Assembly: GCF_000025505.1 (NCBI RefSeq)
Contig: NC_013849.1
Coordinates: 900,001 to 932,000 of the forward strand
Direction: 5' to 3'
Length of the DNA stretch: 32,000 nt
Source: Ferroglobus placidus DSM 10642
GTDB lineage: Archaea; Halobacteriota; Archaeoglobi; Archaeoglobales; Archaeoglobaceae
The stretch's first letter is position 1. Each line of letters begins with the position of its first letter. This document shows positions 4,557 through 31,017 of the stretch, in pieces. The notes under the pieces are model-generated. The model was not told the DNA's origin and ran no database searches. It was given only the letters and a program-made list of their open reading frames with translations. Made by a program: the position numbers and the translations under genes.

Positions 4557-6538
4557 TTTTTTTGGAGGTTAAGAATATAGCTGTTTTGGGAGCCGGAGCG
4601 ATGGGGCATGCAATAGCCGAGCTTGCGGCGGTTTCCGGATTTAACGTGAAAATTAGGGACATAAAAGAAGAAATTTTGAAGAATGCGATGGAGAGAATAA
4701 AGCAAAGCCTCGAAAAAGATTTCAAGAAGGGAAGGCTAAAAGAAGATCCTCAAGCTGTTTTAAGCAGAATTACCGCCACTTTAGATCTGAAAGAGGCTGT
4801 GGAAGATGCCGACATGATAATCGAAGCCATTCCAGAAATAATGGACCTCAAAAAGCAGGTTTTTGCTGAATGCGAAGAGTACTGCAGAGAAGATACGATA
4901 ATAGCGACCAACACCTCCTCTCTAAGCATTACGGAGCTTTCCAAAGCTCTGAAAAAGCCGGAAAGGTTCATAGGTTTGCACTTCTTCAACCCGCCGAAGG
5001 TGATGAGGCTCGTCGAGATAGTCTGGGGAGAGAAAACGAGTGAAGAGACGGTGAAGATTACCGAGGAAGTTGCAAGAAAAATGAACAGAGTGATAATTCA
5101 CGTTAGAAAGGACGTTCCCGGCTTTGTCGTGAACAGAATTTTCGTTACGATGGCTAACGAGGCTGCGTGGGCTTTAGAAAAGGGAGAGGGAAGCGTGGAG
5201 GAAATAGATTCGGCTGTAAAGTACCGAATGGGCTTGCCAATGGGCTTATTTGAGTTGCACGATCTTCTCGGAGGAGGTTGCATAGACGTAAGCTACCACG
5301 TTCTCGAATACTTCAGGCAAACGCTCGGAGAAAGCTATCGCCCGGCTCCTCCTTTCGAGAGGTTGTTTAAAGCCGGACATTTGGGGAAGAAGAGCGGAAA
5401 AGGTTTCTACGACTGGAGTGAAGGAAAGAGTAACGAAGTTCCGCTTAGAGCCGGAGCGAATTTCGACCTCCTCAGGCTTATAGCTCCTGCCGTTAACGAG
5501 GCTGCTTGGCTGATCGAAAAAGAGGTTGCTACCGCGGAAGAGATAGACCTCGGAGTTATTCACGGATTGAACTATCCGAGGGGATTGCTTAGAATGGCTG
5601 ACGACATAGGAATTGATAAGATCGTCGAAAAGCTCGAAAAACTCTACGAGGAGTACGGAGAGGAGAGGTACAAGGTGAATCCGGTTTTGCAGAAGATGGT
5701 AGAGGAAAACAAGCTGGGAAGAAAGACCGGAGAGGGGTTCTACAAGTACGGCAGGGGGCTTTACGAGTTCGTAAAAGTTGAGAAGCCAAAGGAGAACGTA
5801 GCAGTTATTAAGCTCAACAGACCGCAAAGGGCTAACGCTTTAAACGAAACTTTCCTTAAAGAGCTCGAAGACGCTTTGGAATGGCTTGAGGAAGACGAAA
5901 ACGTAAGATGCATAGTCATCACTGGAGAAGGCAGAAACTTCTGTGCCGGAGCTGATATAGCGGTGTTTGCAGAAGGAAAAGTCGAGAGAATGTTCGAGTT
6001 CAGTCAGCTGGGGCAAAAGGTTTTCAACAAGATAGAAAAGCTGTCCAAGCCGGTAATAGCTGCCGTAAACGGAGCTGCCATGGGTGGAGGATTCGAGCTG
6101 GCTTTAGCCTGCGATCTCAGAGTTGTGAGCAGCAGAGCTATTTTAGCTTTGCCAGAGTTAAACCTCGGAATATTCCCCGGCTGGGGAGGAACGCAGAGGT
6201 TGGCTTTGGCGGTAGGAGTATCCAAGGCTAAGCAGCTGATATTCATGAGAGAAAACATCGACGCTAAAACGGCTTACGATCTCGGAATTGCCAATTACAT
6301 TGCCGAAGAGAACGAGTTCTGGGACAAGGTGATGGAGGTTGCTGAAAAAATTGCGGAAGGACCTCCTTTAGCTTACAAGTTTACCAAGAGAGTCATGTTC
6401 CACGGAATAAAGCCCGAGCTCGAAGCTTCCCTCTTCATGGAGTCGGCTGCTGGAGGAGACATAGTTCTTTCCGACGATGTGGCTGAGGGAATTCAGGCTT
6501 TCTCTTACAGAAGGAAGCCGAACTTTAAGGGGAGATGA
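4553..6538 (+). CDS. Fused 3-hydroxyacyl-CoA dehydrogenase (N-terminal) / enoyl-CoA hydratase (C-terminal)
   Basis: 661-aa ORF. N-terminal Rossmann motif 'IAVLGAGAMGHAIA'. HACD core 'TNTSSLSITELS...GLHFFNPP'. C-terminal crotonase 'FCAGADI' and 'NGAAMGGGFELALACD'. The GTG start overlaps the iorB stop (GTGA). An alternative TTG at 4562 follows SD-like GGGGTGA. Confidence 0.9.
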   Translation: MIFLEVKNIAVLGAGAMGHAIAELAAVSGFNVKIRDIKEEILKNAMERIKQSLEKDFKKGRLKEDPQAVLSRITATLDLKEAVEDADMIIEAIPEIMDLKKQVFAECEEYCREDTIIATNTSSLSITELSKALKKPERFIGLHFFNPPKVMRLVEIVWGEKTSEETVKITEEVARKMNRVIIHVRKDVPGFVVNRIFVTMANEAAWALEKGEGSVEEIDSAVKYRMGLPMGLFELHDLLGGGCIDVSYHVLEYFRQTLGESYRPAPPFERLFKAGHLGKKSGKGFYDWSEGKSNEVPLRAGANFDLLRLIAPAVNEAAWLIEKEVATAEEIDLGVIHGLNYPRGLLRMADDIGIDKIVEKLEKLYEEYGEERYKVNPVLQKMVEENKLGRKTGEGFYKYGRGLYEFVKVEKPKENVAVIKLNRPQRANALNETFLKELEDALEWLEEDENVRCIVITGEGRNFCAGADIAVFAEGKVERMFEFSQLGQKVFNKIEKLSKPVIAAVNGAAMGGGFELALACDLRVVSSRAILALPELNLGIFPGWGGTQRLALAVGVSKAKQLIFMRENIDAKTAYDLGIANYIAEENEFWDKVMEVAEKIAEGPPLAYKFTKRVMFHGIKPELEASLFMESAAGGDIVLSDDVAEGIQAFSYRRKPNFKGR

Positions 6539-7737
6539 GTATGAGGAACGTTGCGATAGTCGGAGTGGGAATAACGAGGTTTGGCGTTAGAGAGGCGAGC
6601 TGGAAAGACCTCGTTCTCGAAGCTGGTAAGTCGCTTTTCGATGATGTGCCGAATTTAGATAAGAAGGACATAGATTCGCTTTTCGTAGGAGCAGCTCAGC
6701 CAGAGAGGTGGATTTATCAGACTCACGTTGCTCCGCTCGTAGCTGAGCTACTTGGAATAGAGGTGAAGAGGGTTATAGCGAGAACCGAATCGGCATGCGC
6801 AAGCGGGCAGCTTGCGATAAGGTATGCTTGGCTTTCCATAGCCACCGGACTGAGCGACGTGGCTTTGGTCGTTGGAGTAGAGAAGATGAATTCGAAGTTC
6901 CTGAATATCAGCCAGTCGAGCATGATAAACGTAGGAAACAGGGAATTCGACGGGGCGAACGGTTTTACGGCTCCTCCCTTCTTTGCGATGGTCGCCCAGA
7001 GGCACATGCATTTGTACGGCACGACTGAGGAGCAGATGGCGATGGTTAGAGTTAAGAATCAGGAGTACGGCTCTCAGAATCCCTACGCTCAGTTCCAGAA
7101 GAAGGTGACTGTAGAGCAGGTTTTGAATTCGAGGATGGTCGCTCCGCCCCTAAAGCTCTTTGATTGCTCAGCCATAACAGACGGAGCCGTTGCCTTGCTT
7201 TTAACGAGCGAGGAGAGAGCGAGAGAGTTCACAGACACTCCGGTATGGATCCTCGGAGGAGTGCAGCACGTTGATGCCGCTCACACGACCAACCAGATGG
7301 GTGAACTGGCTGACTGGGTAGCTCTGAGAAAAGCCGCTAAGGACCTCTACGACATGCTGAAAATTACTCCGGACGACATCGACATTGCTGAAGTCCACGA
7401 CTGCTTTACGATAAGCGAGATAATCGAATACGAAGAGCTTGGTTTCTGCAAGAAAGGGGAGGGAGGGAAGTTCATAGAAGAGGGAGAAAGCTACATAGGA
7501 GGAAAAGTTGCCGTAAACCCCGGAGGAGGATTGTTAGCCAACGGACATCCGCTCGGAGCCACAGGAACGAGGCAGGCTTGGGAGATAGTCATGCAGTTCA
7601 GAGGAGAGGTGCCGAAGGGGAGATACGTGGACGGAGCTGAGTTAGCTATTGCCCACAACCTGAGCGGAATGGCGCAGCTCCACCACATCATGGCTTACAG
7701 CGTCAACAAGCCGAGGGATATTAAGTTCGGGAGGTAA
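6535..7737 (+). CDS. Thiolase (acetyl-CoA acetyltransferase / SCP-x-type archaeal thiolase)
   Basis: 400-aa ORF. 'VAIVGVGITRFG', active-site region 'ESACASGQLAI', C-terminal 'NPGGGLLANGHPLGATG'. The ATG overlaps the upstream stop (ATGA). A second ATG at 6541 has better SD spacing (GGGGAG). Confidence 0.9.
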   Translation: MSMRNVAIVGVGITRFGVREASWKDLVLEAGKSLFDDVPNLDKKDIDSLFVGAAQPERWIYQTHVAPLVAELLGIEVKRVIARTESACASGQLAIRYAWLSIATGLSDVALVVGVEKMNSKFLNISQSSMINVGNREFDGANGFTAPPFFAMVAQRHMHLYGTTEEQMAMVRVKNQEYGSQNPYAQFQKKVTVEQVLNSRMVAPPLKLFDCSAITDGAVALLLTSEERAREFTDTPVWILGGVQHVDAAHTTNQMGELADWVALRKAAKDLYDMLKITPDDIDIAEVHDCFTISEIIEYEELGFCKKGEGGKFIEEGESYIGGKVAVNPGGGLLANGHPLGATGTRQAWEIVMQFRGEVPKGRYVDGAELAIAHNLSGMAQLHHIMAYSVNKPRDIKFGR

Positions 7738-7741
7738 AAAA

Positions 7742-8239
7742 ATGAAGAAGCCGAAGAGAAAGCTAACTCTGCCGGAAAAAATCGACTTGCCTCCCCTCTT
7801 AGATTTATGGGAGCAGCAAGACCCGAGCGGACCTGACGCCACTGGAATTTACGACTTCTACAGGAACTTAGCTGAAGGAGAGCTCACCACAACTAAGTGC
7901 AAAAGCTGCGGAAAGCTGATGTTCCCTCCACAAATAATATGTCCGAACTGCTACAGCGACGAGCTGGAGTGGGTTAGAATTCCCGAGGAAGGAGAGCTCT
8001 ACGCCTTCACAGAGTTAAGACTCGGAGCTCCGATAATCGTGGAGAATTACACACCCTTCGTCATAGCTATAGCGAGGTTCGGAAACTATCCAGAAAACGG
8101 AGTTCAGATAAGTGGAATGATGTTCGACGTGAAGTACGAGGACTTGAAAATAGGAGATAAAGTCAGGTGGGAGATTCTTGAGATAGAAGGACCGGGAGAG
8201 AAGAAGAGGTACTGGTACTACTTCGAGAAAGTCGAGTAG
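7742..8239 (+). CDS. DUF35-type OB-fold/zinc-ribbon protein (thiolase-associated)
   Basis: 165-aa ORF. Zinc ribbon 'CKSCGKLMFPPQIICPNC' followed by an OB-fold-like region. It sits directly downstream of the thiolase, as in archaeal thiolase/DUF35 pairs. SD GGGAGGT lies about 8 nt upstream. Confidence 0.8.
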   Translation: MKKPKRKLTLPEKIDLPPLLDLWEQQDPSGPDATGIYDFYRNLAEGELTTTKCKSCGKLMFPPQIICPNCYSDELEWVRIPEEGELYAFTELRLGAPIIVENYTPFVIAIARFGNYPENGVQISGMMFDVKYEDLKIGDKVRWEILEIEGPGEKKRYWYYFEKVE

Positions 8240-8240
8240 A

Positions 8241-8262
8241 TTTTTATTAAACCTCTATTTTT
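8241..8262 (+). terminator. Oligo-T tracts after the iorB-hbd-thiolase-DUF35 unit
   Basis: T5 runs at 8241-8245 and 8258-8262 immediately follow the stop at 8237-8239. Archaeal termination typically occurs at oligo-T. Confidence 0.45.
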
Positions 8263-8276
8263 GGCTACGTCGTGAA

Positions 8277-8690
8277 CTATTCCTTTTCAGGAAGTACGTA
8301 AGAAACTTTACTCTTTTTCAATCCTTTTTTCAATAGCTCTTCATAAGCCTTCTTGACGACCTCAAATTTCTTCGACTCGAAAAGAATTATTCCCTCAGAC
8401 AGTGCGTCGAGAATAGTCGGACTCCCCTTCTTCAGCATTTCCAAAGCTTCGTTAAGTGTGTAGGGGTGTGGCTCAAGGTTAATGCCCAAATCCAGTATTT
8501 CCAGCAACCTACCTATTCTGTCCAAGTACCTTTCGGTGAAGTCGGCAATGATTAGAAGGTCGTAATCGCTCCAAGGTTTATAATCACCTCTCGCTCTCGA
8601 ACCGAAAAGAATTACGGCGTGAACATCGTAGTGTTCTCTCAATTTTTTCACAGCTACTTTTAACTTATCTAGAGATTGTTTTTCTTGCAA
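8277..8690 (-). CDS. Minimal nucleotidyltransferase (MNT) domain protein, partner of the HEPN gene upstream
   Basis: 137-aa ORF. NTase signature 'ILFGSRARGDYKPWSDYDLLII' (G-S...D-x-D). Overlaps the upstream HEPN ORF. Confidence 0.85.
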   Translation of the reverse strand: MQEKQSLDKLKVAVKKLREHYDVHAVILFGSRARGDYKPWSDYDLLIIADFTERYLDRIGRLLEILDLGINLEPHPYTLNEALEMLKKGSPTILDALSEGIILFESKKFEVVKKAYEELLKKGLKKSKVSYVLPEKE

Positions 8691-9060
8691 AATTTACCAC
8701 CTCTTCGGCGGATCTTATCGCTCTTTTAGAAGTCTCCTCATCGTAAGCTTCGTGGGGGGTTCCAGAAGGGTGAGCATCTGGATACCGAGAGGGGATGTAA
8801 TGTCTATCCAACTCTCTCGCATGAACCATGAGTTCTTCGATTTTTTCTCCTTTTTTTTCAAAAAATCTTTCCAGCAATTCTCTGATACTATGCCCCCACG
8901 GAGCTTCATTTATGTGGAATAGCAAAGCTTTAACCGCTTTCTCAGCCGCTTGATGAGCATAGAAAGCCGAAGCGTTATATCTCTTTTTTTCATGCAGTAT
9001 CTTAGCTGTCTCCAAATCCCAAAGAGCCTCTTCCAACCACCTTTCAGCTTCTTTCCTCAT
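8665..9060 (-). CDS. HEPN domain protein
   Basis: 131-aa ORF. 'YNASAFYAHQAAEKAVKALL' and 'LDRHYIPSRYPD' fit the HEPN helical-bundle pattern. Gene pair with the MNT. Confidence 0.82.
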   Translation of the reverse strand: MRKEAERWLEEALWDLETAKILHEKKRYNASAFYAHQAAEKAVKALLFHINEAPWGHSIRELLERFFEKKGEKIEELMVHARELDRHYIPSRYPDAHPSGTPHEAYDEETSKRAIRSAEEVVNFARKTISR

Positions 9061-9069
9061 TTAACTTTC

Positions 9070-9091
9070 ATTTAACCACAGTTAAATATAA
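9070..9091 (-). promoter_or_regulatory. TATA box of the HEPN-MNT unit overlapped by an inverted repeat (candidate operator)
   Basis: On the minus strand, 'TTATATTT' (fwd 9084-9091) lies about 24-31 nt upstream of the ATG at 9060. Inverted repeat ATTTAAC-caca-GTTAAAT spans 9070-9087. Confidence 0.45.
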
Positions 9092-9127
9092 CGTTTTGCT
9101 TAAAAAATACGACAAAAAAGGGGAAAA

Positions 9128-10060
9128 TTACTCGAGCTTAGCTCCGCAGTTCAGGCAGAACTTCGAGAAGTCTGGCAAAAATTCTGCTCCGCACTTCTCG
9201 CACTTCTTCATTAAAGGTCCGTAAGGATACCTCGGGTCCATTCCCTTTCCTATCCTGTCTCTTATCTCTCTCATCCTCGCCTTCCTCTTCTGCTTGAACG
9301 CCCACAGCCCTTCGCTCGGCTCGACTCCGCCTATGTTTAAAGAGAACCAGGCTTTACCGTGCTCCCAAGTAAGTCTCCAGACAAGGTCTCTCCACCAGTT
9401 CAAATGGACTTTGAAGTACCAAAGGCTCGAAGGAGACAGGTCGAGCATTCTGTCTATCATCTCCTTAACCTTCTCATCAAGCTTTTCCTGAGGAACCACG
9501 GCGTTAACGATCCCCCATTCGTAAGCAGTCTTCGCATCGATCTCGCTGCTCATCATGACTATTTCGGCAGCCCTCTTCAAGCCTATGTGTAACGGCAGCC
9601 ACTGAGATAACCCGCCGATGGAGGTCATTCCAACTCTTGGCCCGGGAGATATGAACCTCGCGTTTTCGCTTGCCACGGCTAAATCGCAGGCGCAAACGAA
9701 CTCGAAGCCTCCTCCTGCTGTGACTCCGTTCACCCTCGCTATAACCGGCTTTCCGCAGTGCATTATCATGTCGAAAACTCTTCCGTAGATTTCTCCCCAC
9801 TTCCAGAAGTCAGAAGGTTTCTTAGTGTACTCCTCAGCGTATTCGTGCACGTTACCTCCAGTACAGAAGGCTTTGTCGCCAACGCCGGTAAGAACTATGA
9901 ACTGTATGTCGTCGTTCCACATCGCTTTTTCTATAGCATCGACCATCTCCCTAAGGGTCGTCAACGTGTAAGAATTGTACTCGTGGGGACGATTTATTGC
10001 TATCAGAGCTGTATGCGTGTACCAGTTTTCGTCGTAAATAATCTCTTTGTAGTCCGCCAT
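9128..10060 (-). CDS. MenB/BadI-like crotonase-fold protein with C-terminal zinc ribbon
   Basis: 310-aa ORF. 'LTGVGDKAFCTGGN', 'NGVTAGGGFEFVCACDL' and 'SPGPRVGMTSIGG' resemble the DHNA-CoA synthase / 2-ketocyclohexanecarboxyl-CoA hydrolase branch. The last ~30 aa, 'CEKCGAEFLPDFSKFCLNCGAKL', form a CxxC...CxxC ribbon. Confidence 0.75.
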   Translation of the reverse strand: MADYKEIIYDENWYTHTALIAINRPHEYNSYTLTTLREMVDAIEKAMWNDDIQFIVLTGVGDKAFCTGGNVHEYAEEYTKKPSDFWKWGEIYGRVFDMIMHCGKPVIARVNGVTAGGGFEFVCACDLAVASENARFISPGPRVGMTSIGGLSQWLPLHIGLKRAAEIVMMSSEIDAKTAYEWGIVNAVVPQEKLDEKVKEMIDRMLDLSPSSLWYFKVHLNWWRDLVWRLTWEHGKAWFSLNIGGVEPSEGLWAFKQKRKARMREIRDRIGKGMDPRYPYGPLMKKCEKCGAEFLPDFSKFCLNCGAKLE

Positions 10061-10110
10061 GGTAAAATGTTGTAGAGGGAAAATATAAAGTTTACGAATT
10101 AAAGCCGAAA

Positions 10111-10902
10111 TTAATTGTTATCTTTACTTTGTAAAGACTTCTGGAGGGCTAACAATGCCGCTCCGTAGGCACCGATTATTTGAGGGTTTTCTGGGACAGA
10201 AATGCTGACTTTAAGCTCTTCCTCCAGAGCTTTTACCACTCCTTTATTTTTAGCAACTCCTCCTGTCATCACAACTCTCTCCCTAATTCCCACCTGCTTT
10301 ACAATTCCAGCCACCCTTTTAGCTATAGCTCTGCAGACTCCGGCAACGACGTCGTAAACGTCCTTTCCTTCAGCGAGCAAAGAAATTACTTCGCTTTCCG
10401 CAAAAACCGTGCAGACGCTCGTAATTTCGACCTTATTTTTAGCTTTGAAATACGCTTCCGAAAGTTCCTCGAGCGTTAAGCCGAGAGTTGACGCCATAAC
10501 TTCAAGGAATTTTCCAGTTCCAGCAGCGCACTTATCGTTCATAGCGAAGTTGATAACTCTCCCGTTTTCATCCAAAGCTATAGCTTTGGAATCCTGTCCT
10601 CCTACATCTATGACCGTTCTGCAATCGGGAAAAATTTTCTTAACTCCCGTCGCATGGCAGGTTATCTCGGTAACTTTTTCATCCGCAAAGTCCTCAGCAG
10701 CAAGATTTCTTCCGTATCCTGTGGCTACTACGTACTCAACTTTCCCATCAACTTTTTTCAGTGCTTCCTCGAGAGCGAGTCTACCAACTTCTTTAACTTT
10801 TGCTCCAGTTTTAATTATGCTGTAGGAAAGTATCTCCCCCTTTTCATTTATTACGCAAGCCTTTGTCGTGTTGGAGCCAATATCCACTCCAGCGAACATC
10901 AT
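10111..10902 (-). CDS. BcrAD/BadFG/HgdC-type ATPase (activator of a 2-hydroxyacyl-CoA dehydratase / BCR-like enzyme)
   Basis: 263-aa ORF. ASKHA-fold start 'FAGVDIGSNTTK', 'DVGGQDSK', and cluster-bridging Cys motif 'DKCAAGTGKFLE'. The start overlaps the upstream stop (ATGA). Confidence 0.88.
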   Translation of the reverse strand: MMFAGVDIGSNTTKACVINEKGEILSYSIIKTGAKVKEVGRLALEEALKKVDGKVEYVVATGYGRNLAAEDFADEKVTEITCHATGVKKIFPDCRTVIDVGGQDSKAIALDENGRVINFAMNDKCAAGTGKFLEVMASTLGLTLEELSEAYFKAKNKVEITSVCTVFAESEVISLLAEGKDVYDVVAGVCRAIAKRVAGIVKQVGIRERVVMTGGVAKNKGVVKALEEELKVSISVPENPQIIGAYGAALLALQKSLQSKDNN

Positions 10903-12119
10903 AACAGAGCCTCTATAAAAGCGTCTATTTTCGTTTTTGCCCTCTCAATTGGCATCATCCTCGGATCGCACTGGGGTGCTTCGAGTATCAGGCTTGGAAC
11001 ACCCAGATCTTCCTTCAGTCTTTCGGCGAGGGGGTAAATTATAGCAGAAGTTATTCTGCAGCCCGTGTTTTCGAGGAGCAAAGCTCCGTCTATATCAGCC
11101 TTTTTAGCGGTTTTTATGACGCTGTCCAAAAAAGAGTAGTCGCAGTTGGTGAAGTGGAAACTTCTCTTAGCCATGCTTCTGAAGGGGTCTTTCGCTTCAA
11201 CTCTATGTACTGAAGCGTTGACGTAGAGATTGACCGGAAAATTCGCTCCCTTACTTTCGCAGTACTGGTAGAGTTCGAGGGTGTGCCAAGGCATTATACC
11301 GAAGGTAAGAAATCTAAGCTTTTCCTCCGAAACTCCTTCTCCCTTCTTAACCCTCTCCTTTATTTTTTCGTAAGCCTTCTCGCAGAATTCTAAAGCGTAA
11401 TCGCTGCCGAGGACGAAGAAGGCTATGAAAACCAAATCCCCTATCTCCCTCTGACTTCCGGGAGTTGGCTTGGACATCATAAGTTTTAAAATTTCTATGA
11501 GTAGCTCGGAAGTTTTCTCGGAAATCCTGAACACTTCCTTCATCCTTTCCTCGTCAAAATCTCCGGCAATTTTTTCCATGAACTCGACGAGCTTCTTCAA
11601 CCTCGAAATGACATATTCCAAATAGAATTCGTCCACCCATTCAGCGTCTTTTGTCAGCTCGTCCACGTTCCTAAGAGAATCTTTAGTCCAGTAGGGGTAG
11701 TTCACGAAAAACCTCGGCACTTTGTAGTATCTGGCAAAAACTTCAGCCATTTCAGTATGAGCGACGCACAAAGCTCTCGTCCCAACTATGAAGTCGGGCT
11801 TTGGCATCAAAGGCTTTGTCGCCTTCTCTGGAGAGATTATCGATCCTATCGTCGTTTTAAAGTAATCGCAGAGGAAGTGGGAGTATCCGGAGGATATTGC
11901 CTCGTCTATTAAAGCCATTGAAGAGCCTCTTGCCGCACAGTAAGCCGAATACTGCTCGGGGAAGGCTGAAACAACATCGAAAACGTAAATTAGCTCAGAT
12001 GGATGGAAGGAGAAAAACCATCCCACCGGTCTGCCTTTTTTCAGCAACTCCTCCTGCCTCGCGAGATGCTTTTTGAACAAACTCCTGTAAAGCTCTTTAT
12101 AACCGAGAGGGTTCCACAT
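10899..12119 (-). CDS. 2-hydroxyacyl-CoA dehydratase / benzoyl-CoA reductase family subunit (HGD-D type)
   Basis: ORF 10899..12155 in the track. I prefer the ATG at 12119 ('MWNPLGYKELY'), which lies 5 nt after the upstream TGA and is preceded by GGAAGGTGA. Size, position next to the activator and several conserved-looking Cys ('FLCDYFK', 'NTGCRITS') fit the family. The assignment is by context plus weak motif recall. Confidence 0.7.
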   Translation of the reverse strand: MWNPLGYKELYRSLFKKHLARQEELLKKGRPVGWFFSFHPSELIYVFDVVSAFPEQYSAYCAARGSSMALIDEAISSGYSHFLCDYFKTTIGSIISPEKATKPLMPKPDFIVGTRALCVAHTEMAEVFARYYKVPRFFVNYPYWTKDSLRNVDELTKDAEWVDEFYLEYVISRLKKLVEFMEKIAGDFDEERMKEVFRISEKTSELLIEILKLMMSKPTPGSQREIGDLVFIAFFVLGSDYALEFCEKAYEKIKERVKKGEGVSEEKLRFLTFGIMPWHTLELYQYCESKGANFPVNLYVNASVHRVEAKDPFRSMAKRSFHFTNCDYSFLDSVIKTAKKADIDGALLLENTGCRITSAIIYPLAERLKEDLGVPSLILEAPQCDPRMMPIERAKTKIDAFIEALL

Positions 12120-12123
12120 TTTT

Positions 12124-13212
12124 TCACCTTCCGAAAGATTCGATAAAAGCTTCAACCCTCGTTTTGTACTGCTCGATGCTAATCGGATACTCGTAATCCA
12201 AAACCAACACCGGAACGTTAAGCTCCCTCACTATCCAGCTGCACTGATGCCCGCAGATTTCGCAACCCCTCTCCTTCATAAGTATCACCGCTTCAGCTTT
12301 GCTCTTCTCGATCCTTTTACTTATGAACTCAATTCTCTCATCGATCGGGGACGCCTTAGAAGACATTGTGCACGAGCAGATCGAGAAGTACCTTTTCGCA
12401 ACGCTTTCTATTGAGCCGTCGTCAACCATGCCAGAGTAGTAAGCTGCAGAAGTGCAGAAATCGTCGGAAACTATCGCCAAACCCCAGTCCTCGAGATTCC
12501 TAAGAAAGTTCACGTCGGCAAAGTCGGTTCCGGAAACGTGAACTCTGATTTTGTAATCTTCTCTTCCTTCCCTCCGCTCAGCCTCTCTGTAAAAATCCCT
12601 CGCTATCTGCAAAAAATCCTCCTTAAGCATTTGCTGGGAAATTAGCATTAGAGAGAGAAACTCGCTTCCGCTAACCTTCGGGTTCTCCTTGCTCCTCAAG
12701 CTGTCTATCCTCGAGCAAAGGATTCTGTACTCGTTGTAAATCTCAACGGAATCTCTTAGCTTCTTCTTATCAATATCGGTTTTCAAAAAATTGGAAAGCT
12801 TTAAAGAAAACCTCTCCAGCTCCTCTTTAAAGAAGTGGAAAGAATCCTCATCTTTCACGAAGGGAAATTGGATGAGGTAAGAAAATTCGGGTTTGACGTA
12901 AAAGGTGTAGGAGGAGAAGAGGTGAATTTTCGTGTCGTCGGTTGTTGAGGAAACAATGCCATCTACTTTAAAGCCCCTCAAACCGTCCTCCATAACCCCT
13001 CGCGAATAGCTGCACATCCAGCTGGGGAATTTCGCATATACCTCTTTGAACTCGTTAACTCCGAAGAGCCTTACCGGAACCGCTCCGAGAGAATGGATGA
13101 TCTCTTCAGGCACCGTGTTACACATCGTCCCGATTATTTTCTTCCCTCTTCTCCTGTACTCTTCGATCTTTTTCCTTTCGATAAAAAACTCCTGAAAAAT
13201 TTTTGGTATCAT
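12124..13212 (-). CDS. 2-hydroxyacyl-CoA dehydratase / benzoyl-CoA reductase family subunit (HGD-D type)
   Basis: ORF 12124..13224 in the track. I prefer the ATG at 13212 ('MIPKIFQEF'), which is preceded by GGAGGT and lies 1 nt after the ligase stop. N-terminal 'KKIIGTMCNTVPEEIIHSLGAVPVRLFG' is the typical family start. 'ERGCEICGHQ' lies near the C-terminus. Confidence 0.75.
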   Translation of the reverse strand: MIPKIFQEFFIERKKIEEYRRRGKKIIGTMCNTVPEEIIHSLGAVPVRLFGVNEFKEVYAKFPSWMCSYSRGVMEDGLRGFKVDGIVSSTTDDTKIHLFSSYTFYVKPEFSYLIQFPFVKDEDSFHFFKEELERFSLKLSNFLKTDIDKKKLRDSVEIYNEYRILCSRIDSLRSKENPKVSGSEFLSLMLISQQMLKEDFLQIARDFYREAERREGREDYKIRVHVSGTDFADVNFLRNLEDWGLAIVSDDFCTSAAYYSGMVDDGSIESVAKRYFSICSCTMSSKASPIDERIEFISKRIEKSKAEAVILMKERGCEICGHQCSWIVRELNVPVLVLDYEYPISIEQYKTRVEAFIESFGR

Positions 13213-13213
13213 T

Positions 13214-14872
13214 TTAACCTCCACGCTTCTTTCTCTCCTCTTCTCTAAGAACCCTCCTGAGAATCTTTCCTACTGCACTCTTGGGCAGCTCATCCCTGAA
13301 TTCGACGATTCTCGGAATCTTGTAAGCAGCCAAGTGCTTCCTCGCAAACTCGATGATTTCCTCTTCAGTAACTTTGCCCTTGTACTCGGGCTTGAGAACT
13401 ATGAAGGCTTTGGGCACCTCTCCTCTGTACTCGTCGGGAACTCCTATCACGGCGCATTCTAAAACTGCTGGATGCCTGTACAAGACTTCCTCAACCTCAG
13501 AAGGATAGACGTTGTATCCGCTTACTATGATCATGTCTTTCTTCCTGTCGACTATGTAAATGTAGCCGTCCTCATCCATGTATCCGATGTCGCCAGTGTA
13601 GAGCCACCCATCCCTTATCGCTTCCTTCGTCCTCTCCGGATCGTTCCAGTACTCCCTTATTATTTTCTTGCTCCTGAGAACTATCTCTCCTACGTTCTCC
13701 TCCCCCGGAGGTAGATCTTTTCCAGTTTCTGGATCGACTATTTTGATCTCCACGCTCGGCACGGGCATTCCAGCGCTTCCAACCTTTATAACTCCGTGAA
13801 CCGGGTTGCTCGTACCAATTATCGCAGCCTCAGTCAATCCCCACTGCTCGATGACAGTTGCGTCTGGCATTAACTCCTTCACCTTCCTCAAAAGCTCAAT
13901 AGGCACCGGAGCTGAGCCGACGCTGATAACTCTAACGGAAGAAAGATCTCTTCTCTTCACTTCAGGATGATTCACTATAGCTACAAGATGCGTCGGGACG
14001 CAGTGTATCTGAGTGATTCTGTACCTCTCCACAGCTCTCAAAAATTCTCCGGCTTCGAAGTAGGGGAAGAGAACCACCGTTCCGGCATTGTAGAAAACGT
14101 TCATGTTGCTCGTCCATATTCCGTTTCCGTGGAACATCGGCATCAAACCAGAGAAAACATCCTTGCCCTTTCTCGCATCGAGCACTATCGAGAATATCTT
14201 CGCATCTATCATCAAATTTCTGTGGGTGTAAACAGCCCCCTTCGGTCTTCCAGTCGTACCGCCGGTGTACGTTAATGAAGCAACATCCTCAAGGGAGACG
14301 TCGAATTTCGCCGGTTTGGGATTCTTCTTTAAAAGTTCGGTGAAGAAAATCACTCTTTCGTCGCTTTTCAGCTCCTCCTCGTTCTTGTAAGGCAGAAACC
14401 TCCTCGAAGTTGGAGGGAGGTAATCCTTTAAGCTCGTAACTATGATGTGTTCCAGCGGAGTTTTGTCGAAGACAGCCTTCACCCTATCGTAGAGGATGTC
14501 GAGGGTTACGATAGCCTTAGCTCCGGAGTGGTTGAGCTGATACTCAAGCTCCCTTTCGGTGTACATAACGTTCGTATGAACAGCTATCATCCCGTTGCTC
14601 AAAGCAGCAAAGTAGCCGATGTTGAACTGCGGACAGTTCGGCATGAAAAACGAAATTCTGTCTCCTTTTTCCAGGTAATCCGAGAAAGCGTTTGCAACTC
14701 TTAAAACCTGATCGAAGAACTCTCTGTAAGTTAGAGTGTGCCCGTAGTAAATTATCGCATCCTTGTCAGCGTACTCTTTTGCTACTTCAGCCAGCATTTC
14801 CGGTGGAGTTTTATCAGGCTCTTCGATATCCTCGGGCCATCCGATGTACTTGTACCACTTCTTCCAAATCAT
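13214..14872 (-). CDS. AMP-forming acyl-CoA ligase (adenylate-forming superfamily)
   Basis: ORF 13214..14881 in the track. The ATG at 14872 is preceded by AAGGTGG. AMP-binding motif 'LTYTGGTTGRPKGAVYTH', 'GYGLTE'-like 'QWGLTEA', 'TGDIGYMDEDGYIYIVDRKKD', and C-terminal 'PKSAVGKILRR'. Confidence 0.9.
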   Translation of the reverse strand: MIWKKWYKYIGWPEDIEEPDKTPPEMLAEVAKEYADKDAIIYYGHTLTYREFFDQVLRVANAFSDYLEKGDRISFFMPNCPQFNIGYFAALSNGMIAVHTNVMYTERELEYQLNHSGAKAIVTLDILYDRVKAVFDKTPLEHIIVTSLKDYLPPTSRRFLPYKNEEELKSDERVIFFTELLKKNPKPAKFDVSLEDVASLTYTGGTTGRPKGAVYTHRNLMIDAKIFSIVLDARKGKDVFSGLMPMFHGNGIWTSNMNVFYNAGTVVLFPYFEAGEFLRAVERYRITQIHCVPTHLVAIVNHPEVKRRDLSSVRVISVGSAPVPIELLRKVKELMPDATVIEQWGLTEAAIIGTSNPVHGVIKVGSAGMPVPSVEIKIVDPETGKDLPPGEENVGEIVLRSKKIIREYWNDPERTKEAIRDGWLYTGDIGYMDEDGYIYIVDRKKDMIIVSGYNVYPSEVEEVLYRHPAVLECAVIGVPDEYRGEVPKAFIVLKPEYKGKVTEEEIIEFARKHLAAYKIPRIVEFRDELPKSAVGKILRRVLREEERKKRGG

Positions 14873-14962
14873 CCGAACCACCTTTTACACTTTTAAACAA
14901 TTACCGGTTATTTTCTAAAACTTGTAAAGGAAATTAATAAGTTTTACGCAACTTTGTAAAAG

Positions 14963-15937
14963 TCAGCTGCGAAGAGAGCTTCTAATTTTGTGCCACAGAC
15001 CTTCCGGAGAGAGCAATGCAACCGCTATCAGAATTGCGTAAAGAACGATTTCGTCGTTTACAAAAGCTCCCTGAGGGATCATCGTTTTCAGGAAGAGGTT
15101 CTTCAATAAGTAGACGATGATTCCGCCTATTAAAGGTCCGTAGAGCGTTCCAAGCCCGCCAAGAACTGCCGACAAAATAATCATTAACATGAGAGGTATG
15201 TCGTACAAATCCGGACCGACTGTAATTCTGTAAAGAACTATAGTCGCTCCGGCTACTCCGGCAAAGAAAGAACTTATCGTAAAGGCGAGAACTTTGTACT
15301 TCACGACGTCAATTCCCAAAGCTTCGGCCAGTTCCTCGTCATCTCTCACCGCCATGAATCTGTAACCCAAATCGCTCTTAACGATGTAACGCATGGCTAA
15401 AAAGCACAGTAAAAAGACTGCAAAGGCTACGTAATACCTAACCACCGGCGATTGGGACAAAGCTCTCTCCAAACCTATGGAAAATCCCTCTTCCCCACCG
15501 AAAACGTCGGAGAAAACGTAAACTGTTTGGATGAAAACGAGGGGGAGTATTGCGGTGACCAAAGCGAAATAGTATCCTTTAAGCCTCAAAGTTACGAAGC
15601 CTATAGCAGCTCCGAAGAGGGCTGCTACGATTCCACCTATTAAAATCGACAGAAACTGATTCTGAGGAGGCATAGAAGCTAAAGCTGAAGAAAAGCTTTC
15701 GAATCTTGAAGGGACTTGGAGTAAAGCTGCCGTATACGCTCCGAGCCCAACGAAGACCGTATGACCGAGGTTAACTTGTCCGGTGTATCCGACTATTATA
15801 TCCCAGCTCAGTACGAGGATAAGAAATAGAAAGAGCATTCCGAAGAGGAAGAGGTAACCTTCGGGGGTGTAGAAAGGTAGCGTTAACGCAACTATCAATC
15901 CGATTAAGCCTATCAAGTAATTCTTCAAACCCCTCAT
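14963..15937 (-). CDS. livM: Branched-chain-amino-acid-type ABC transporter permease (LivM family)
   Basis: 324-aa polytopic ORF. 'GYTGQVNLGHTVFVGLGAY' is typical of LivM. The start overlaps the livH stop. Confidence 0.85.
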   Translation of the reverse strand: MRGLKNYLIGLIGLIVALTLPFYTPEGYLFLFGMLFLFLILVLSWDIIVGYTGQVNLGHTVFVGLGAYTAALLQVPSRFESFSSALASMPPQNQFLSILIGGIVAALFGAAIGFVTLRLKGYYFALVTAILPLVFIQTVYVFSDVFGGEEGFSIGLERALSQSPVVRYYVAFAVFLLCFLAMRYIVKSDLGYRFMAVRDDEELAEALGIDVVKYKVLAFTISSFFAGVAGATIVLYRITVGPDLYDIPLMLMIILSAVLGGLGTLYGPLIGGIIVYLLKNLFLKTMIPQGAFVNDEIVLYAILIAVALLSPEGLWHKIRSSLRS

Positions 15938-16791
15938 TCTTCCACCCCGAAGAGTCCCGTAGGTTTGAATATCAGCACGGCTATTATCAAAAGCATAACA
16001 ACGAATTCAGCCCACCTCGCTCCGAGAAAAACGATCGTTGTTGCCAAAACGTAGCCGACGATAAAAGAAGCCACTATGCTACCTTTCACGCTACCGAGTC
16101 CTCCCAAAATGACTATTGCGAAAGCGAAAATCAGAGACTTTATTGCTGCAAAAGGATTAGCTGAGAATATCTGAGCGTAAAATATTCCAGCGAAGCCGGC
16201 TAAGATTGCCGAGACGAACATAGTAACCGTGAAAATTCTTTCCACGTTTATGCCGATCAGCATTGCTCCCTCGTAATTCTGGGAAGCTGCGCTTATCATT
16301 TTACCGGTTCTCGTTTTGTTTATGAATATTTCGAGAATTACGAGAATTGCAATCGAGAAAACGAAAGCCAAAATTCTTTTATAGGTAACCGGAACGTCGT
16401 AAATTCTCACAACACCTCCCACAAAGCTCGGCAAGCTCACACCGTGTTCGCCGTAGGTGAGCAGAATTATCTGCTCGAAAAGTAAAGCCAAAGCGAGCGT
16501 TACTATTATGACCATAACTTCGTGCTCCCTTATCGGAGCGAGCAAAAACCTGTAGATTGCGACAGCCAAAGCTCCGATTAGAAGAACGCCGAGAATGACA
16601 GAGAGATAAAGGTTTAATCCGCTTTTGTAAAACGTTATCGCAAAATAAGCTGCTAAAACGAAGAAAGTGCCGTGGGCGAAGTTTAAAATTCTCGAAACGC
16701 CGAAAATGAGCGTGAAACCCGAGGAAACTAAAGCCCACATTCCACTTATAACCGCACCGTATATAAGTATCCTGACAATGTCTTCAATCAT
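15934..16791 (-). CDS. livH: Branched-chain-amino-acid-type ABC transporter permease (LivH family)
   Basis: 285-aa polytopic ORF. 'LIFGVSRILNFAHGTFFVLAAY' is typical of LivH. Confidence 0.85.
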   Translation of the reverse strand: MIEDIVRILIYGAVISGMWALVSSGFTLIFGVSRILNFAHGTFFVLAAYFAITFYKSGLNLYLSVILGVLLIGALAVAIYRFLLAPIREHEVMVIIVTLALALLFEQIILLTYGEHGVSLPSFVGGVVRIYDVPVTYKRILAFVFSIAILVILEIFINKTRTGKMISAASQNYEGAMLIGINVERIFTVTMFVSAILAGFAGIFYAQIFSANPFAAIKSLIFAFAIVILGGLGSVKGSIVASFIVGYVLATTIVFLGARWAEFVVMLLIIAVLIFKPTGLFGVEE

Positions 16792-16852
16792 ACTTAATCA
16801 CGACATTACAAAAAATAAAAAATTTTCGGAAATATTTTACAAAGTTAAATCT

Positions 16853-18178
16853 TCACTCAAGCCAAGGCGGCAATTTCAAGTCGCAGGTTGCGACGGTCTC
16901 TGGGTAAAGAATGCACTGCTTACCATCCTGCCACTGGCTGACCCAGTTCCTCACGTACTCGTCTCCCCAGACTAACGCGTGGTTCTTGTGGAAGGCAACG
17001 TTCCTCGTAAGCTTAGCCGGATTTCCTGGCTTGAACTGTTCGAGGTACTTCACCACAACGTCGGGATCAAACGGATTCTCTTCTCCGGCTTTGTAAGCCG
17101 CTTCCACAGCCATCTTGTATATGTAAACCGCATCGTAAGCTCCGTAGGCTTGATGAGATTCGGGATAGTGCCCGTACTTCTCCTTGTAAGCTTCTATAAA
17201 GTGCTTAGCCATTTCTGTTGGCGGAGCAGTAACCAAAACTCCACCGTCAGCGAGGAATATGTAGTACTCGGCAGCTCCTCCCGTCTTCTCGTAGAACTGG
17301 TAGTCTATAGCAGCTAAATCGTGTCCGGCTAAGAGGAACTTCGGCTGTAACTCAGCCCACTGCTTCACCAAGACGTCGCCGGTTCCGGCTATAGCAAGTA
17401 TTGGCATAACGAGATCGGCTCCTTTATCTTCAGCGTCGATCAGAAGCTGCTCGTATTCGGTGTAACCTCTCCCGACTTTCGCATCTCCCACGATCTCAAT
17501 GCCTCTCTCCTCGAGGAGAGGAGTAAGATCCTTCATAACGGCGTCCGTCCAGACGTGCTCGTCTCTTATTATGTACACCTTGTTAACCTCGTAACCCTTG
17601 CTTCTCAGATAATCGATCATTCCGGCTAAGTCCCAGGCAAAAGTAGTTCCGTTGTTCTGGCTGATCCTGAACCAGTACTTGTACTTCTCGTAGTTCTCAG
17701 CAACCTTAGCCGGATGAGCCGGAGAGGATGCGTCAGCCAAGAATACTGTCTTCGTCTCAGCCATAACTTCCATCATTGTGTTCATAACTCCGCTGCTGAA
17801 TCCTCCCAGAATCATGTCAGCTTTCTCCACCTCAGCCAACCTTCTGAATTCAGAAGCTGCCGTATCCGGATTAAGCTTCGTATCACCTACGACGATCCTT
17901 ATCGGCAATCCGAGAATTCCTCCTTTAGCGTTTATCTCCTCAGCTGCTAACCTTGCAGCTTTCTCCTCAGCCTGTCCCTCTGGCAGAGCCATCGGACCGA
18001 TGACCCCTATCACCACCTCTTTTTTACCTCCAAACTTCGGAGTTGGCGTTGGAGTTGCTGCGGGAGTTTCCTTCTTCTCCGGTGTTGGCGTTGGCGTAGG
18101 AGTTGCTTTCTCAGCTGGCTGTGCGCAGCCGAAGAGCAAAGCAGCTACAACCAGCAGCAAAACTACTTTTCGCATCAT
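16853..18178 (-). CDS. livK: Liv/Bra-type periplasmic-binding-fold substrate-binding lipoprotein
   Basis: 441-aa ORF. Signal peptide with lipobox-like 'LLFGC', a Thr/Pro linker 'TPTPTPTPEKKETPAATPTPTP', then 'VVIGVIGPMALPEGQ...AAEEINAKGGILG', typical of type-I PBPs. Confidence 0.85.
   Translation of the reverse strand: MMRKVVLLLVVAALLFGCAQPAEKATPTPTPTPEKKETPAATPTPTPKFGGKKEVVIGVIGPMALPEGQAEEKAARLAAEEINAKGGILGLPIRIVVGDTKLNPDTAASEFRRLAEVEKADMILGGFSSGVMNTMMEVMAETKTVFLADASSPAHPAKVAENYEKYKYWFRISQNNGTTFAWDLAGMIDYLRSKGYEVNKVYIIRDEHVWTDAVMKDLTPLLEERGIEIVGDAKVGRGYTEYEQLLIDAEDKGADLVMPILAIAGTGDVLVKQWAELQPKFLLAGHDLAAIDYQFYEKTGGAAEYYIFLADGGVLVTAPPTEMAKHFIEAYKEKYGHYPESHQAYGAYDAVYIYKMAVEAAYKAGEENPFDPDVVVKYLEQFKPGNPAKLTRNVAFHKNHALVWGDEYVRNWVSQWQDGKQCILYPETVATCDLKLPPWLE
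18038..18103 (-). repeat. (ACN-CCN)n Thr/Pro linker-coding microrepeat in livK
   Basis: On the plus strand it reads as GGNGTN-type repeats ('ggagttggcgttggagttgctgcgggagtt...ggtgttggcgttggcgtaggagtt'). It encodes TPTPTPTP...TPTPTP. Confidence 0.8.
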
Positions 18179-18205
18179 CAGTAATAAAAAATCGTGGAAA
18201 TACTT

Positions 18206-18213
18206 AAATATTT
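18206..18213. promoter_or_regulatory. Palindromic TATA element AAATATTT shared by divergent livK and livG
   Basis: The centre at 18209.5 is 26.5 nt from the livG ATG (18236) and 31.5 nt from the livK ATG (18178). It is the only TATA-like element in the 57-bp gap. Confidence 0.5.
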
Positions 18214-18235
18214 CGAAGGTATTAAGCTTTGTTTG

Positions 18236-19610: not shown

Positions 19611-19612
19611 GC

Positions 19613-20023
19613 ATGCCGGTTACGTTGAGAGTGAGGGACATAATGAATAAGGACGTTACGAAGGTTTTCGAAGATGAAAGCGTTCACGAAGCAACAAAGA
19701 AGATGGTCGAGAAGGGAGTGAAGTGCGCGGTTGTAGTGAACAACAAAGGGGAGCCTGTAGGAGTTATCACCGAAGGAACCGTCACGAGAAAAGTTCTTTT
19801 AGCCTGTAAAGATCCGAGGGAAGTGAAAGTAAAGGACATAATGTCGAAGCCGATAATAACGATAAAGGCGGATGCGACGCTAAAAGAGGCTTCCGAAGCT
19901 TTCTTAAAGTACGATGTGAAGCAGCTTTACGTAGAGGAGGACGGAAAGATCGTGGGATTTCTTACTGAGCACAGAATACTTAAAGCCATAAACGAAGTGA
20001 TATTGACTCTGCTTTCGATATAA
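19613..20023 (+). CDS. CBS-domain pair protein
   Basis: About 136 aa. Two CBS-like repeats ('VRDIMNKDVTKV...VVNNKGEPVGVITEGTV' and 'VKDIMSKPIITI...VEEDGKIVGFLTEHRILK'). The ATG at 19613 follows GAGGTG. The track start is GTG 19607. The gene is coupled to the livF stop (19608-19610). Confidence 0.8.
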   Translation: MPVTLRVRDIMNKDVTKVFEDESVHEATKKMVEKGVKCAVVVNNKGEPVGVITEGTVTRKVLLACKDPREVKVKDIMSKPIITIKADATLKEASEAFLKYDVKQLYVEEDGKIVGFLTEHRILKAINEVILTLLSI

Positions 20024-24981: not shown

Positions 24982-25016
24982 TAAATTTAGTTCTCGAAAA
25001 GAAAGATAACGTTTTC

Positions 25017-30973: not shown

Positions 30974-31017
30974 ACTTTCTCTACCTCCTTTTTCACGCAC
31001 CTTTTCCTATCACGTCC

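Follow-up and report, generated by a model that had tools for sequence, protein, structure and literature searches.

An isolated archaeal clade of the benzoyl-CoA reductase/2-hydroxyacyl-CoA dehydratase family in the aromatic-acid island of Ferroglobus placidus: a candidate ligase-fed dehydratase with a reductase-like subunit

Which reaction is catalysed by a radical enzyme whose three genes stand between those for an AMP-forming coenzyme A (CoA) ligase and a crotonase? This question is raised by five successive minus-strand genes, Ferp_1044 to Ferp_1040, of Ferroglobus placidus DSM 10642. They occupy positions 9128–14872 of the 32,000 nt stretch analysed here (called the window; NC_013849.1, positions 900,001 to 932,000). 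An earlier note, made from the letters of this stretch alone, had described five near-contiguous genes of a hyperthermophilic archaeon; the listing of open reading frames (ORFs) and domain scans found all five with the domains as named, and the source is indeed such an organism. Six proteins of the window match GenBank entries exactly (ADC65202–65206 and ADC65216). The Ferp numbering of the module holds because gene counting places IorAB at Ferp_1033–1034, in agreement with PMC6500515. We found that Ferp_1041–1043 form an isolated, archaea-only clade of the benzoyl-CoA reductase (BCR)/2-hydroxyacyl-CoA dehydratase family, and we tentatively read them as a ligase-fed (R)-2-hydroxyacyl-CoA dehydratase. 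The elements of the module are:

13214–14872, minus strand: AMP-forming ligase Ferp_1044, 552 aa (PF00501 and PF13193)
12124–13212, minus strand: HGD-D beta-type subunit Ferp_1043 (HgdB), 362 aa (PF06050, 231 bits)
10899–12119, minus strand: HGD-D alpha-type, substrate-binding subunit Ferp_1042 (HgdA), 406 aa (PF06050, 201 bits)
10111–10902, minus strand: ASKHA-type ATPase activase Ferp_1041 (BcrAD/BadFG-type), 263 aa (PF01869; TIGR00241 with 268 bits, cut-off 125)
10082–10089, minus strand: TATA-like box TTTATATT in the 50-nt spacer, 22–29 nt upstream of the crotonase ATG
9128–10060, minus strand: crotonase with a C-terminal CxxC...CxxC zinc ribbon, Ferp_1040, 310 aa (PF00378 and PF13240)

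The tight coupling that had been noted can be read directly from the sequence: one nucleotide separates the ligase stop from the following ATG, and the alpha stop overlaps the activase start in an ATGA. Two details had to be corrected. The two HGD-D genes are 4 nt apart (TGA-AAAA-ATG), not 5, and the module end given as 14881 belongs to a GTG-extended ORF, whereas the GenBank protein begins at the ATG at 14872. The 50-nt gap before the crotonase gene does hold a TATA-like box, and TTTATATT could plausibly serve as the TATA box of a leaderless archaeal mRNA. As the earlier note had said, the module has a single ATPase gene, with none elsewhere in the window, and a CoA-transferase domain was not found in any of the 30 window ORFs scanned. 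Scans of the window for tRNAs and Rfam families gave no matches, and no tandem repeat was found within the module. The order ligase-HgdB-HgdA was found in 14 of the 26 related loci that made up our context survey. As this order recurs there, and the order from the Liv uptake genes to the crotonase in Geoglobus and Archaeoglobus metagenome-assembled genomes, the arrangement is not due to chance.

PF06050 was detected twice and PF01869 once, all far over cut-off, which places the three proteins in the superfamily of radical enzymes that comprises BCR and the 2-hydroxyacyl-CoA dehydratases. With AlphaFold models of the subunits (pLDDT 91) as queries, all PDB matches are to this family, at TM scores of 0.82–0.91. 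For the beta subunit, BzdN is the best PDB match by sequence and by fold (8s02_B, TM 0.91), followed in fold by HadC (TM 0.89). When ligand positions are mapped onto those published for BzdNO (PMC11971306), C31, C67, C253, C281 and C317 align with BzdN Cys36/73/263/293/327 and Asp92 with Cys100; five of the six double-cubane cysteines are thus kept. The six columns read C-C-D-C-C-C in the window, six times Cys in BzdN and DCCP, and P-C-C-A-C-C in HadC. The window pattern is found throughout the betas of Archaeoglobales, Hecatellales and Methanoliparia, and Asp92 is kept in all 22 family loci but two, which have Glu. The Bathyarchaeia betas lack C253, and two distant members lack C31, C253 and C281 and carry Glu at position 92. 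The nearest outgroups of beta have all six cysteines, one of them in a Bzd-like operon with two ATPases. The best NCBIfam match of beta is the double_cubane model, with 141 bits against a cut-off of 350.

The alpha subunit shows another affinity. Its best PDB sequence match is HadB, which is also ahead in fold (TM 0.87 by Foldseek, against 0.82–0.85 for BzdO/MbdO) and in NCBIfam score (141 bits, against 94 for BzdO). C84, C118 and C354 align with BzdO Cys95/128/380, E55 with BzdO Glu65, and H121 with BzdO His131, where HadB has no His. These five residues and a family-specific C384 are invariant in 24 family members. His121 was considered as a marker of reductases and rejected, being present in 29 of the 145 nearest dehydratase-like relatives (20%) and hence not specific to BCR. 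The activase is nearly equally close to MbdQ (238 bits), HadI (233) and HgdC (219), and its cluster-bridging Cys motifs NDKCAAGTG and SVCTVFAES are conserved. As far as the sequences tell, the enzyme appears to be a mixture: a dehydratase-sized alpha, a reductase-like beta with a family-specific Asp, and one ATPase.

The earlier note had reckoned with the subunits falling into a characterised dehydratase clade. They stand outside: the HadB and HadC equivalog models give 141 bits against a cut-off of 750 and 95 against 700, and those for BzdN/O and BcrB/C give 62–97 bits against 421–487. Among 39 word-sharing relatives of alpha, identity drops from 48% to 28%, and an exhaustive HMMER search of 1.8 billion representatives returned one of the same family (55% identity) and none other above 35%. 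In the scan of species-representative genomes the family occurs only in archaea, namely in Geoglobus and Archaeoglobus metagenome-assembled genomes (MAGs), Hecatellales, other Bathyarchaeia, Methanoliparum, Methanolliviera, Nezhaarchaeota, Methanomethylicota and Nitrososphaerota. In a neighbour-joining tree of 145 alpha representatives and three PDB sequences, alpha is about equally distant from HadB, BzdO and MbdO; its apparent pairing with MbdO is probably an effect of long-branch attraction. Of the 45 nearest alpha representatives listed, almost all have a better score against HadB than against BzdO or MbdO.

A contig of an uncultured archaeon (L001, 1895–4947) is nearly completely syntenic with window positions 10111–13212. 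Identity between the two is 65% for HgdB, 79% for the activase and 83% for HgdA, against 93–97% for the flanking ligase, crotonase, thiolase and FadB-like proteins and 81% for IorB, part of which is truncated where the contig ends. The genes of the radical enzyme, and most of all HgdB, evolve much faster than their neighbours or were exchanged.

How does this enzyme compare with known systems? HadBC/HadI of Clostridioides difficile (PDB 3O3M, 4EHT) likewise has two HGD-D subunits, one gene for a homodimeric ASKHA activator and a three-Cys [4Fe-4S] site in alpha with a conserved Glu (HadB Glu55, equivalent to E55). However, identity is only about 25–27%, HadC lacks the distal-cubane cysteines of the window beta and has Cys where the latter has Asp, and HadB has no counterpart of His121. 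In dehydratases of this type the beta subunit holds a single [4Fe-4S]/[4Fe-5S] cluster. In addition, the HadA CoA-transferase is replaced by the AMP-forming ligase, and the window has no ldhA-type gene. In Clostridium sporogenes, FldABC/FldI converts aryl-lactyl-CoA to cinnamoyl-CoA, FldA being a CoA-transferase bound to the dehydratase. Judged from the general description of that system, the likeness to FldABC lies in the proposed chemistry and in the link to aromatic amino acids and indolepyruvate:ferredoxin oxidoreductase (IOR); the window differs by its ligase and by a product which would be oxidised rather than reduced.

With BzdNOPQ of Aromatoleum (PDB 8S02; PMC11971306) the enzyme shares five of six [8Fe-9S] cysteines in beta, the Cys triad, Glu65 and His131 of BzdO in alpha, and a ligase and ring-pathway crotonases nearby. 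It differs by one ATPase gene instead of the BzdP/BzdQ pair, by Asp for Cys100, by Arg at position 355 for BzdO Glu381 (Lys in HadB) and by a shorter alpha (406 against 447 aa). Its Bzd equivalog scores of 94–97 lie under cut-offs of 449–454, and the same organism has a separate BzdNOPQ-type enzyme. The four-gene BCR sets of L031 and L033, with two ATPases, also look different from the window module. In DCCP/DCCP-R of Carboxydothermus (PDB 6ENO, 7YYL) a homodimeric ATPase feeds electrons to a double-cubane site, as may be the case here; DCCP, however, consists of two identical subunits, each with a 7-Cys motif, and its channel would not admit CoA esters, being too narrow (PMC7317905), whereas the window encodes a heterodimer with the pattern, including Asp, in beta only and a CoA-ester-type alpha with a three-Cys site. 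The 'BadDEG/2-hydroxyglutaryl-CoA dehydratase-like' operon of Ca. Methanoliparia, which includes methylmalonyl-CoA mutase (PMC6703427), belongs to the same family: L018 and L026 are the MAGs in question, their alphas are 53–54% identical and their betas have C-C-D-C-C-C. It differs by short-chain beta-oxidation genes, a B12 mutase and MeaB, by the lack of a ligase in L017–L019 and of a Zn-ribbon crotonase. Induced 'BCR/Hgd-like' proteins have also been reported from sulfate reducers that degrade ketones. The whole family has been described as a stepwise loss of the double cubane from DCCP over BCR to dehydratase (PMC11971306). Judged by its residues and genes, the archaeal clade appears to sit between the BCR and dehydratase states, with a dehydratase-like alpha, a reductase-like beta in which one Cys is consistently changed to Asp, one ATPase, and a ligase taking the place of a transferase.

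The window corresponds to the aromatic-acid island already published for F. placidus. The earlier note had taken the module for a free-standing one without a known substrate. Its gene identities and the tight coupling hold, but it missed the known island with its assigned ligase, the separate BCR and a crotonase that fits ring cleavage; Ferp_1041–1043 themselves are truly unassigned. A literature search found no mention of Ferp_1040–1043, the primary F. placidus transcriptome papers lying outside its coverage. The BzdNOPQ-type BCR Ferp_1184–1187 is said to be functional when expressed. According to PMC6500515 and the works cited there, these four genes encode the canonical four-subunit BCR of F. 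placidus, which lies outside the window.

The ligase Ferp_1044 is identical in sequence to ADC65206 and QCO91678. Judging from the run of accession numbers, the latter is presumably the Ferp_1044 version with optimised codons which the PMC6500515 authors submitted. In that paper, as in the work cited by it, Ferp_1044 is regarded as a benzoate-induced benzoate-CoA ligase. Its benzoate activity in heterologous extract was 1.35 pmol/min/mg, according to the authors four orders of magnitude under native ligases (PMC6500515). Among solved structures it comes closest to those of feruloyl-CoA synthetase, FadD-1 of A. fulgidus and 4-coumarate ligase (268–288 bits); solved benzoate-CoA ligases match more weakly (162–176 bits). 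Of the 26 related loci, 16, from several phyla, have a ligase gene immediately upstream of HgdB or HgdA.

For the crotonase Ferp_1040, the ring-type assignment of the earlier note was borne out. The best NCBIfam model is dearomat_oah (TIGR03200; 159 bits against a cut-off of 464, residues 17–193 only), followed by MenB and then BadI, all under cut-off. More than 100 homologues (40–89% identity) were found in many archaeal phyla and a few bacteria, and the CxxC...CxxC ribbon is kept in 110 of the 111 full-length ones. In Nitrososphaerota and Thermoplasmatota the orthologue is followed by a zinc-type alcohol dehydrogenase gene (top model dearomat_had, 6-hydroxycyclohex-1-ene-1-carbonyl-CoA dehydrogenase) and a crotonase gene (top model dienoyl-CoA hydratase, Dch). 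In the former a PaaK-like ligase precedes it; in the latter the group adjoins a four-gene BCR with two ATPases. Because of these Had-like, Dch-like and BCR neighbours, the family takes the Oah slot of a dch-had-oah cluster, and Ferp_1040 is most probably a ring-cleaving hydrolase of the Oah/BadI type in an archaeal benzoyl-CoA pathway. It would thereby be a widespread candidate for the missing, so far unrecognised archaeal counterpart of BamA/Oah. The Zn-ribbon crotonase family spans Nitrososphaerota, Thermoplasmatota, Bathyarchaeia, Caldarchaeales, MSBL1 and some bacteria.

Conservation of flanking genes gives further hints. The following arrangements were found among the related loci (L numbers):

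Geoglobus and one Archaeoglobus MAG: CBS-domain gene, Liv genes, ligase, HgdB, HgdA, activase, Zn-ribbon crotonase, which is the order of the window
Five other Archaeoglobus MAGs: fixC-like gene, acyl-CoA dehydrogenase, etfB, etfA, zinc-type alcohol dehydrogenase, ligase, HgdB, HgdA, Liv genes; no activase nearby
Hecatellales L012: IorB, IorA, MFS transporter, activase, GlcD-like FAD 2-hydroxy-acid dehydrogenase, ligase, HgdB, HgdA, PaaK-like ligase, GNAT protein, crotonase; aldehyde:ferredoxin oxidoreductase nearby
Hecatellales L013: the ligase-to-crotonase part of the L012 order
Bathyarchaeia/Nitrososphaerota lineage: activase, HgdB, HgdA, LarA-type 2-hydroxy-acid racemase 5 nt downstream or overlapping; aldehyde:ferredoxin oxidoreductase nearby
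L037: FMN-dependent alpha-hydroxy-acid dehydrogenase 2 kb upstream
Methanoliparia: thiolase, OB protein, short-chain dehydrogenase/reductase, 3-hydroxybutyryl-CoA dehydrogenase, short-chain crotonase, HgdB, HgdA, activase, B12 mutase, MeaB
L022 (Methanomethylicota), L023 (Nezhaarchaeales) and L038 (metagenome contig): ligase and HgdA, no recognisable HgdB

The racemase follows HgdA directly in L014 and L036. The five Archaeoglobus loci without an activase gene have ample flanking sequence. IorB, IorA, MFS, activase, HgdB, HgdA and crotonase are clustered in the window and also in two MAGs of Hecatellales (Bathyarchaeia), L012 and L013. LivM, LivH, LivK and the transport ATPases adjoin ligase-HgdB-HgdA in 9–10 loci; the permease and binding-protein genes are those of Archaeoglobales, and LivK is 74–85% identical. 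Two candidate ring-pathway genes did not stand up. The alcohol dehydrogenase upstream of the ligase in Archaeoglobus MAGs is no orthologue of the dearomatisation enzyme Had: it shares only 28–29% identity with the Had-like genes found in L029/L031, and its matches do not include dearomat_had. The crotonases beside the relatives in L012 and L019 are ordinary short-chain crotonases and not Dch.

Some further observations concern the same loci. A tungsten-type aldehyde:ferredoxin oxidoreductase lies within 8 kb of HgdBA in seven GTDB loci of four lineages and in L036 (L012–L016, L024, L025, L036); in L012 and L013 its gene is followed by one for a 4Fe-4S protein. There is no activase near the ligase-alpha pairs of L022, L023 and L038, and in L038 the pair stands among purine-synthesis genes. 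In two Archaeoglobus MAGs (L010, L011; 16338–20598) the Liv genes that adjoin HgdBA are followed by a glycyl-radical enzyme of the PFL2/glycerol-dehydratase type with its activase, and in L010 a BadH-like short-chain dehydrogenase comes after these. Methanoliparia and a related MAG (L017–L020, L026) have the large and small subunits of a B12-dependent acyl-CoA mutase after HgdBA-activase, and L019 was confirmed to have a MeaB-type GTPase, too; the substrates there may hence be short acyl-CoAs that are branched or 2-hydroxy-branched. L033 (Candidatus Jordarchaeum) carries at 5677–11203 a BCR-like operon with three HGD-D and two ATPase genes, whose first subunit is the outgroup nearest to the window beta. 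Genes for a URO-D-like protein, a NifH/CbiA-like ATPase and a protein with a CdhC domain flank this operon.

What, then, might Ferp_1041–1043 do? The conserved residues give good support to a generic mechanism, in which an ASKHA ATPase homodimer bridged by a [4Fe-4S] cluster would push a low-potential electron into beta using ATP hydrolysis. From the aligned ligands we infer that beta carries a double-cubane-like cluster with one Asp ligand and alpha a [4Fe-4S] cluster, which would take over the electron and whose free fourth iron would bind the thioester carbonyl to give a ketyl radical anion. The reaction that we favour, without giving it even odds, is alpha-elimination of water from a CoA thioester made by the probably co-transcribed AMP-forming ligase. 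The likeliest substrate in F. placidus would be an aromatic 2-hydroxy acid (aryl-lactate) imported by the Liv and MFS systems. The resulting aryl-acrylyl-CoA could be shortened to benzoyl-CoA by the dehydrogenase/crotonase fusion and the thiolase (Ferp_1035–1037), and benzoyl-CoA would then pass to the reductase Ferp_1184–1187, the Dch-like crotonase and the Zn-ribbon ring hydrolase. A ligase would replace the clostridial CoA-transferase because a respiring archaeon fully oxidises the product, so that no acyl-CoA is left as CoA donor.

Several lines of evidence point in this direction. Alpha is slightly nearer to HadB in hidden Markov model score, in fold and among its listed relatives. Three kinds of 2-hydroxy-acid enzyme (LarA, GlcD-like, FMN_dh) stand beside family members in three lineages. 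The clostridial had and fld operons have an Acd/Etf arrangement like that of the Archaeoglobus MAGs, with the transferase where the ligase stands. Thiolase, 3-hydroxybutyryl-CoA dehydrogenase and short-chain crotonase before the pair in Methanoliparia are what an enoyl-CoA product needs, and the five Archaeoglobus loci without activase fit a catalytic rather than a stoichiometric ATPase. Co-clustering of IorAB, MFS, activase and HgdBA in two phyla suggests a link to aryl-2-oxo-acid metabolism. F. placidus reportedly uses aromatic amino acids and cinnamate, and together with the linkage of IOR to HgdBA this points to aryl-lactates. There is, however, considerable evidence on the other side. Domain scans found no 2-hydroxy-acid dehydrogenase or racemase encoded in the window. 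Beta keeps the distal-cubane cysteines, with which BzdN stores electrons (PMC11971306), whereas HadC has no equivalents of BzdN Cys36 and Cys263, and the nearest outgroups of beta belong to BCR-like operons that have two ATPases. What may be called the BCR position, between a ligase given as benzoate-induced in the literature and a ring hydrolase, is taken by the enzyme in Ferroglobus and Geoglobus, and adjacency of a ligase is a habit of BCRs, not of dehydratases. The LarA lineage may not represent the window enzyme, since one distal-cubane cysteine was lost there. The alpha tree did not resolve the question, with patristic distances of 0.82 to HadB, 0.80 to BzdO and 0.78 to MbdO, and for the operon of Methanoliparia, Laso-Perez et al. 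came to no decision between the BCR and dehydratase readings (PMC6703427).

A second reading, ranking behind the first, is that Ferp_1041–1043 are an ATP-dependent, BCR-like enzyme of three subunits which reduces an aromatic acyl-CoA by two electrons; we regard this as possible though on balance doubtful. The ligase would make the aryl-CoA, that is benzoyl-CoA or a hydroxy- or amino-benzoyl analogue. The homodimeric ATPase would load two electrons into the double-cubane-type cluster of beta, and the alpha cluster would reduce the ring with Glu55 and His121 as proton donors; after dearomatisation, or reductive removal of a substituent, the Dch-like crotonase and the Zn-ribbon hydrolase would continue. 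The BzdN-type ligands of beta, with a conservative Asp at the sixth position, its best match to BzdN and its Bzd-like outgroup speak for this reading, as do the BzdO-type Glu/His pair of alpha, the order transporter-ligase-enzyme-ring hydrolase in Ferroglobus and Geoglobus, and a ligase for which induction by benzoate and weak activity with it are reported. Nor does a single ATPase tell strongly against a reductase, as the earlier note had assumed, since the DCCP reductase works with a homodimeric ATPase (PMC7317905). However, the genome already has its BzdNOPQ-type BCR, all BCR equivalog scores are far under cut-off, His121 is not a BCR-specific residue and the activase gene is missing from several loci. 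The genes beside the relatives are LarA, GlcD-like and short-chain beta-oxidation ones, most relatives lack genes of a ring pathway in their vicinity, and Laso-Perez et al. found no Dch-type genes in Methanoliparia (PMC6703427). Rather unlikely in our view is a third architecture of the family, in which a HadB-sized catalytic subunit, a BzdN-like subunit with an Asp-ligated double cubane and a homodimeric ATPase would perform an ATP-stoichiometric two-electron reduction of a ligase-made acyl-CoA. The outcome, for which the same reserve applies, would be ring dearomatisation or the reductive removal of a hydroxyl or amino group. If so, reductases and dehydratases would be linked by a living intermediate, and archaea would have a second, simpler way to 'enzymatic Birch' chemistry.

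A further reading, in which a 2-substituted acyl-CoA undergoes reductive dehydroxylation or some other non-canonical ketyl-radical reaction, would reconcile the 2-hydroxy-acid neighbours with the electron-storing pattern of beta and the acid/base His. A 2-hydroxyacyl-CoA would be converted with two electrons to the acyl-CoA, for instance mandelyl-CoA to phenylacetyl-CoA, the double cubane giving the second electron without recycling; the PaaK-like phenylacetate-CoA ligase and IOR adjoining in Hecatellales would suit this. We consider it improbable: nothing in the sequence requires such chemistry, and an enoyl-CoA product explains the adjoining beta-oxidation and Acd/Etf genes more simply. To our knowledge, it is also without precedent in the family. 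About as improbable is mere adjacency, with the ligase and crotonase serving benzoate and Ferp_1041–1043 acting on something unrelated, e.g. a small molecule, like DCCP. In its favour, the crotonase gene is preceded by a TATA-like box of its own, is distributed far more widely than the Hgd family and is missing from most Hgd loci. Against this stand the junctions of 1 nt, 4 nt and an overlap from ligase to activase, the ligase next to the pair or to HgdA alone in the 16 loci mentioned, and an alpha with a HadB/BzdO-type single cluster site and CoA-ester fold instead of a second double cubane. Finally, the earlier note had itself asked whether ligase and crotonase are MenE and MenB of menaquinone synthesis. 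MenB structures are the best PDB sequence matches of the crotonase (129 bits), and o-succinylbenzoate ligase models score moderately. Yet Ferp_1044 reaches 309–337 bits against NCBIfam cut-offs of 556–748 for MenE (337 against 748), and Ferp_1040 143–152 against 343–380 for MenB, with Oah as top model, Had-/Dch-like genes and a BCR beside its orthologues and a conserved Zn ribbon. We know of no MenB with such a ribbon, and this assignment does not appear realistic.

The BCR/2-hydroxyacyl-CoA dehydratase family performs some of the most demanding anaerobic radical chemistry, and few of its members have been studied. Here the host is a cultivable, well-studied hyperthermophile, and the genes lie in a regulon with existing microarray data. 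Solving the enzyme would show if the double cubane is tied to two-electron reduction, and would explain the 'BadDEG/Hgd-like' genes of Methanoliparia, Bathyarchaeia and Archaeoglobi MAGs, which are now cited both for and against aromatic degradation. It could also reveal a route from aromatic 2-hydroxy acids to benzoyl-CoA.

The neighbours of the module are those named in the earlier note: a Liv-type ABC system, IorAB, a FadB-like fusion, thiolase with an OB/Zn-finger protein, an MFS transporter and a second crotonase. By Pfam and, except for the Liv genes, also NCBIfam, they are:

14–772: Dch-like crotonase
827–1966: MFS transporter
1987–3858: IorA, indolepyruvate:ferredoxin oxidoreductase alpha (passes the IOR_alpha equivalog cut-off, 778 against 651 bits)
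3969–4556: IorB
4553–6538: 3-hydroxyacyl-CoA dehydrogenase/crotonase fusion (FadB-like)
6535–7737: thiolase
7742–8239: OB/Zn-finger partner of the thiolase
14963–20023: Liv-type ABC uptake system, with LivM, LivH and LivK on the minus and LivG and LivF on the plus strand, and a CBS-domain gene

Ferp_1033–1034, here IorAB, are named 2-oxoacid:ferredoxin oxidoreductase, or 2-oxoglutarate:ferredoxin oxidoreductase, in PMC6500515. A PDB sequence search with LivK gave no clue to its ligand. Between the crotonase and the thiolase operon lies a HEPN/minimal-nucleotidyltransferase pair resembling a toxin-antitoxin system (8277–9060), which is present in L001, too. A second locus of this kind, a nucleotidyltransferase-HEPN-nucleotidyltransferase triplet, is found at 24254–25322. 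At 27863–31000 the window encodes a surface protein of 1045 aa, which has an MG2-like domain and is anchored by PGF-CTERM; just ahead of the anchor its gene contains a degenerate 6/12/24/48-nt tandem repeat (28027–28118).

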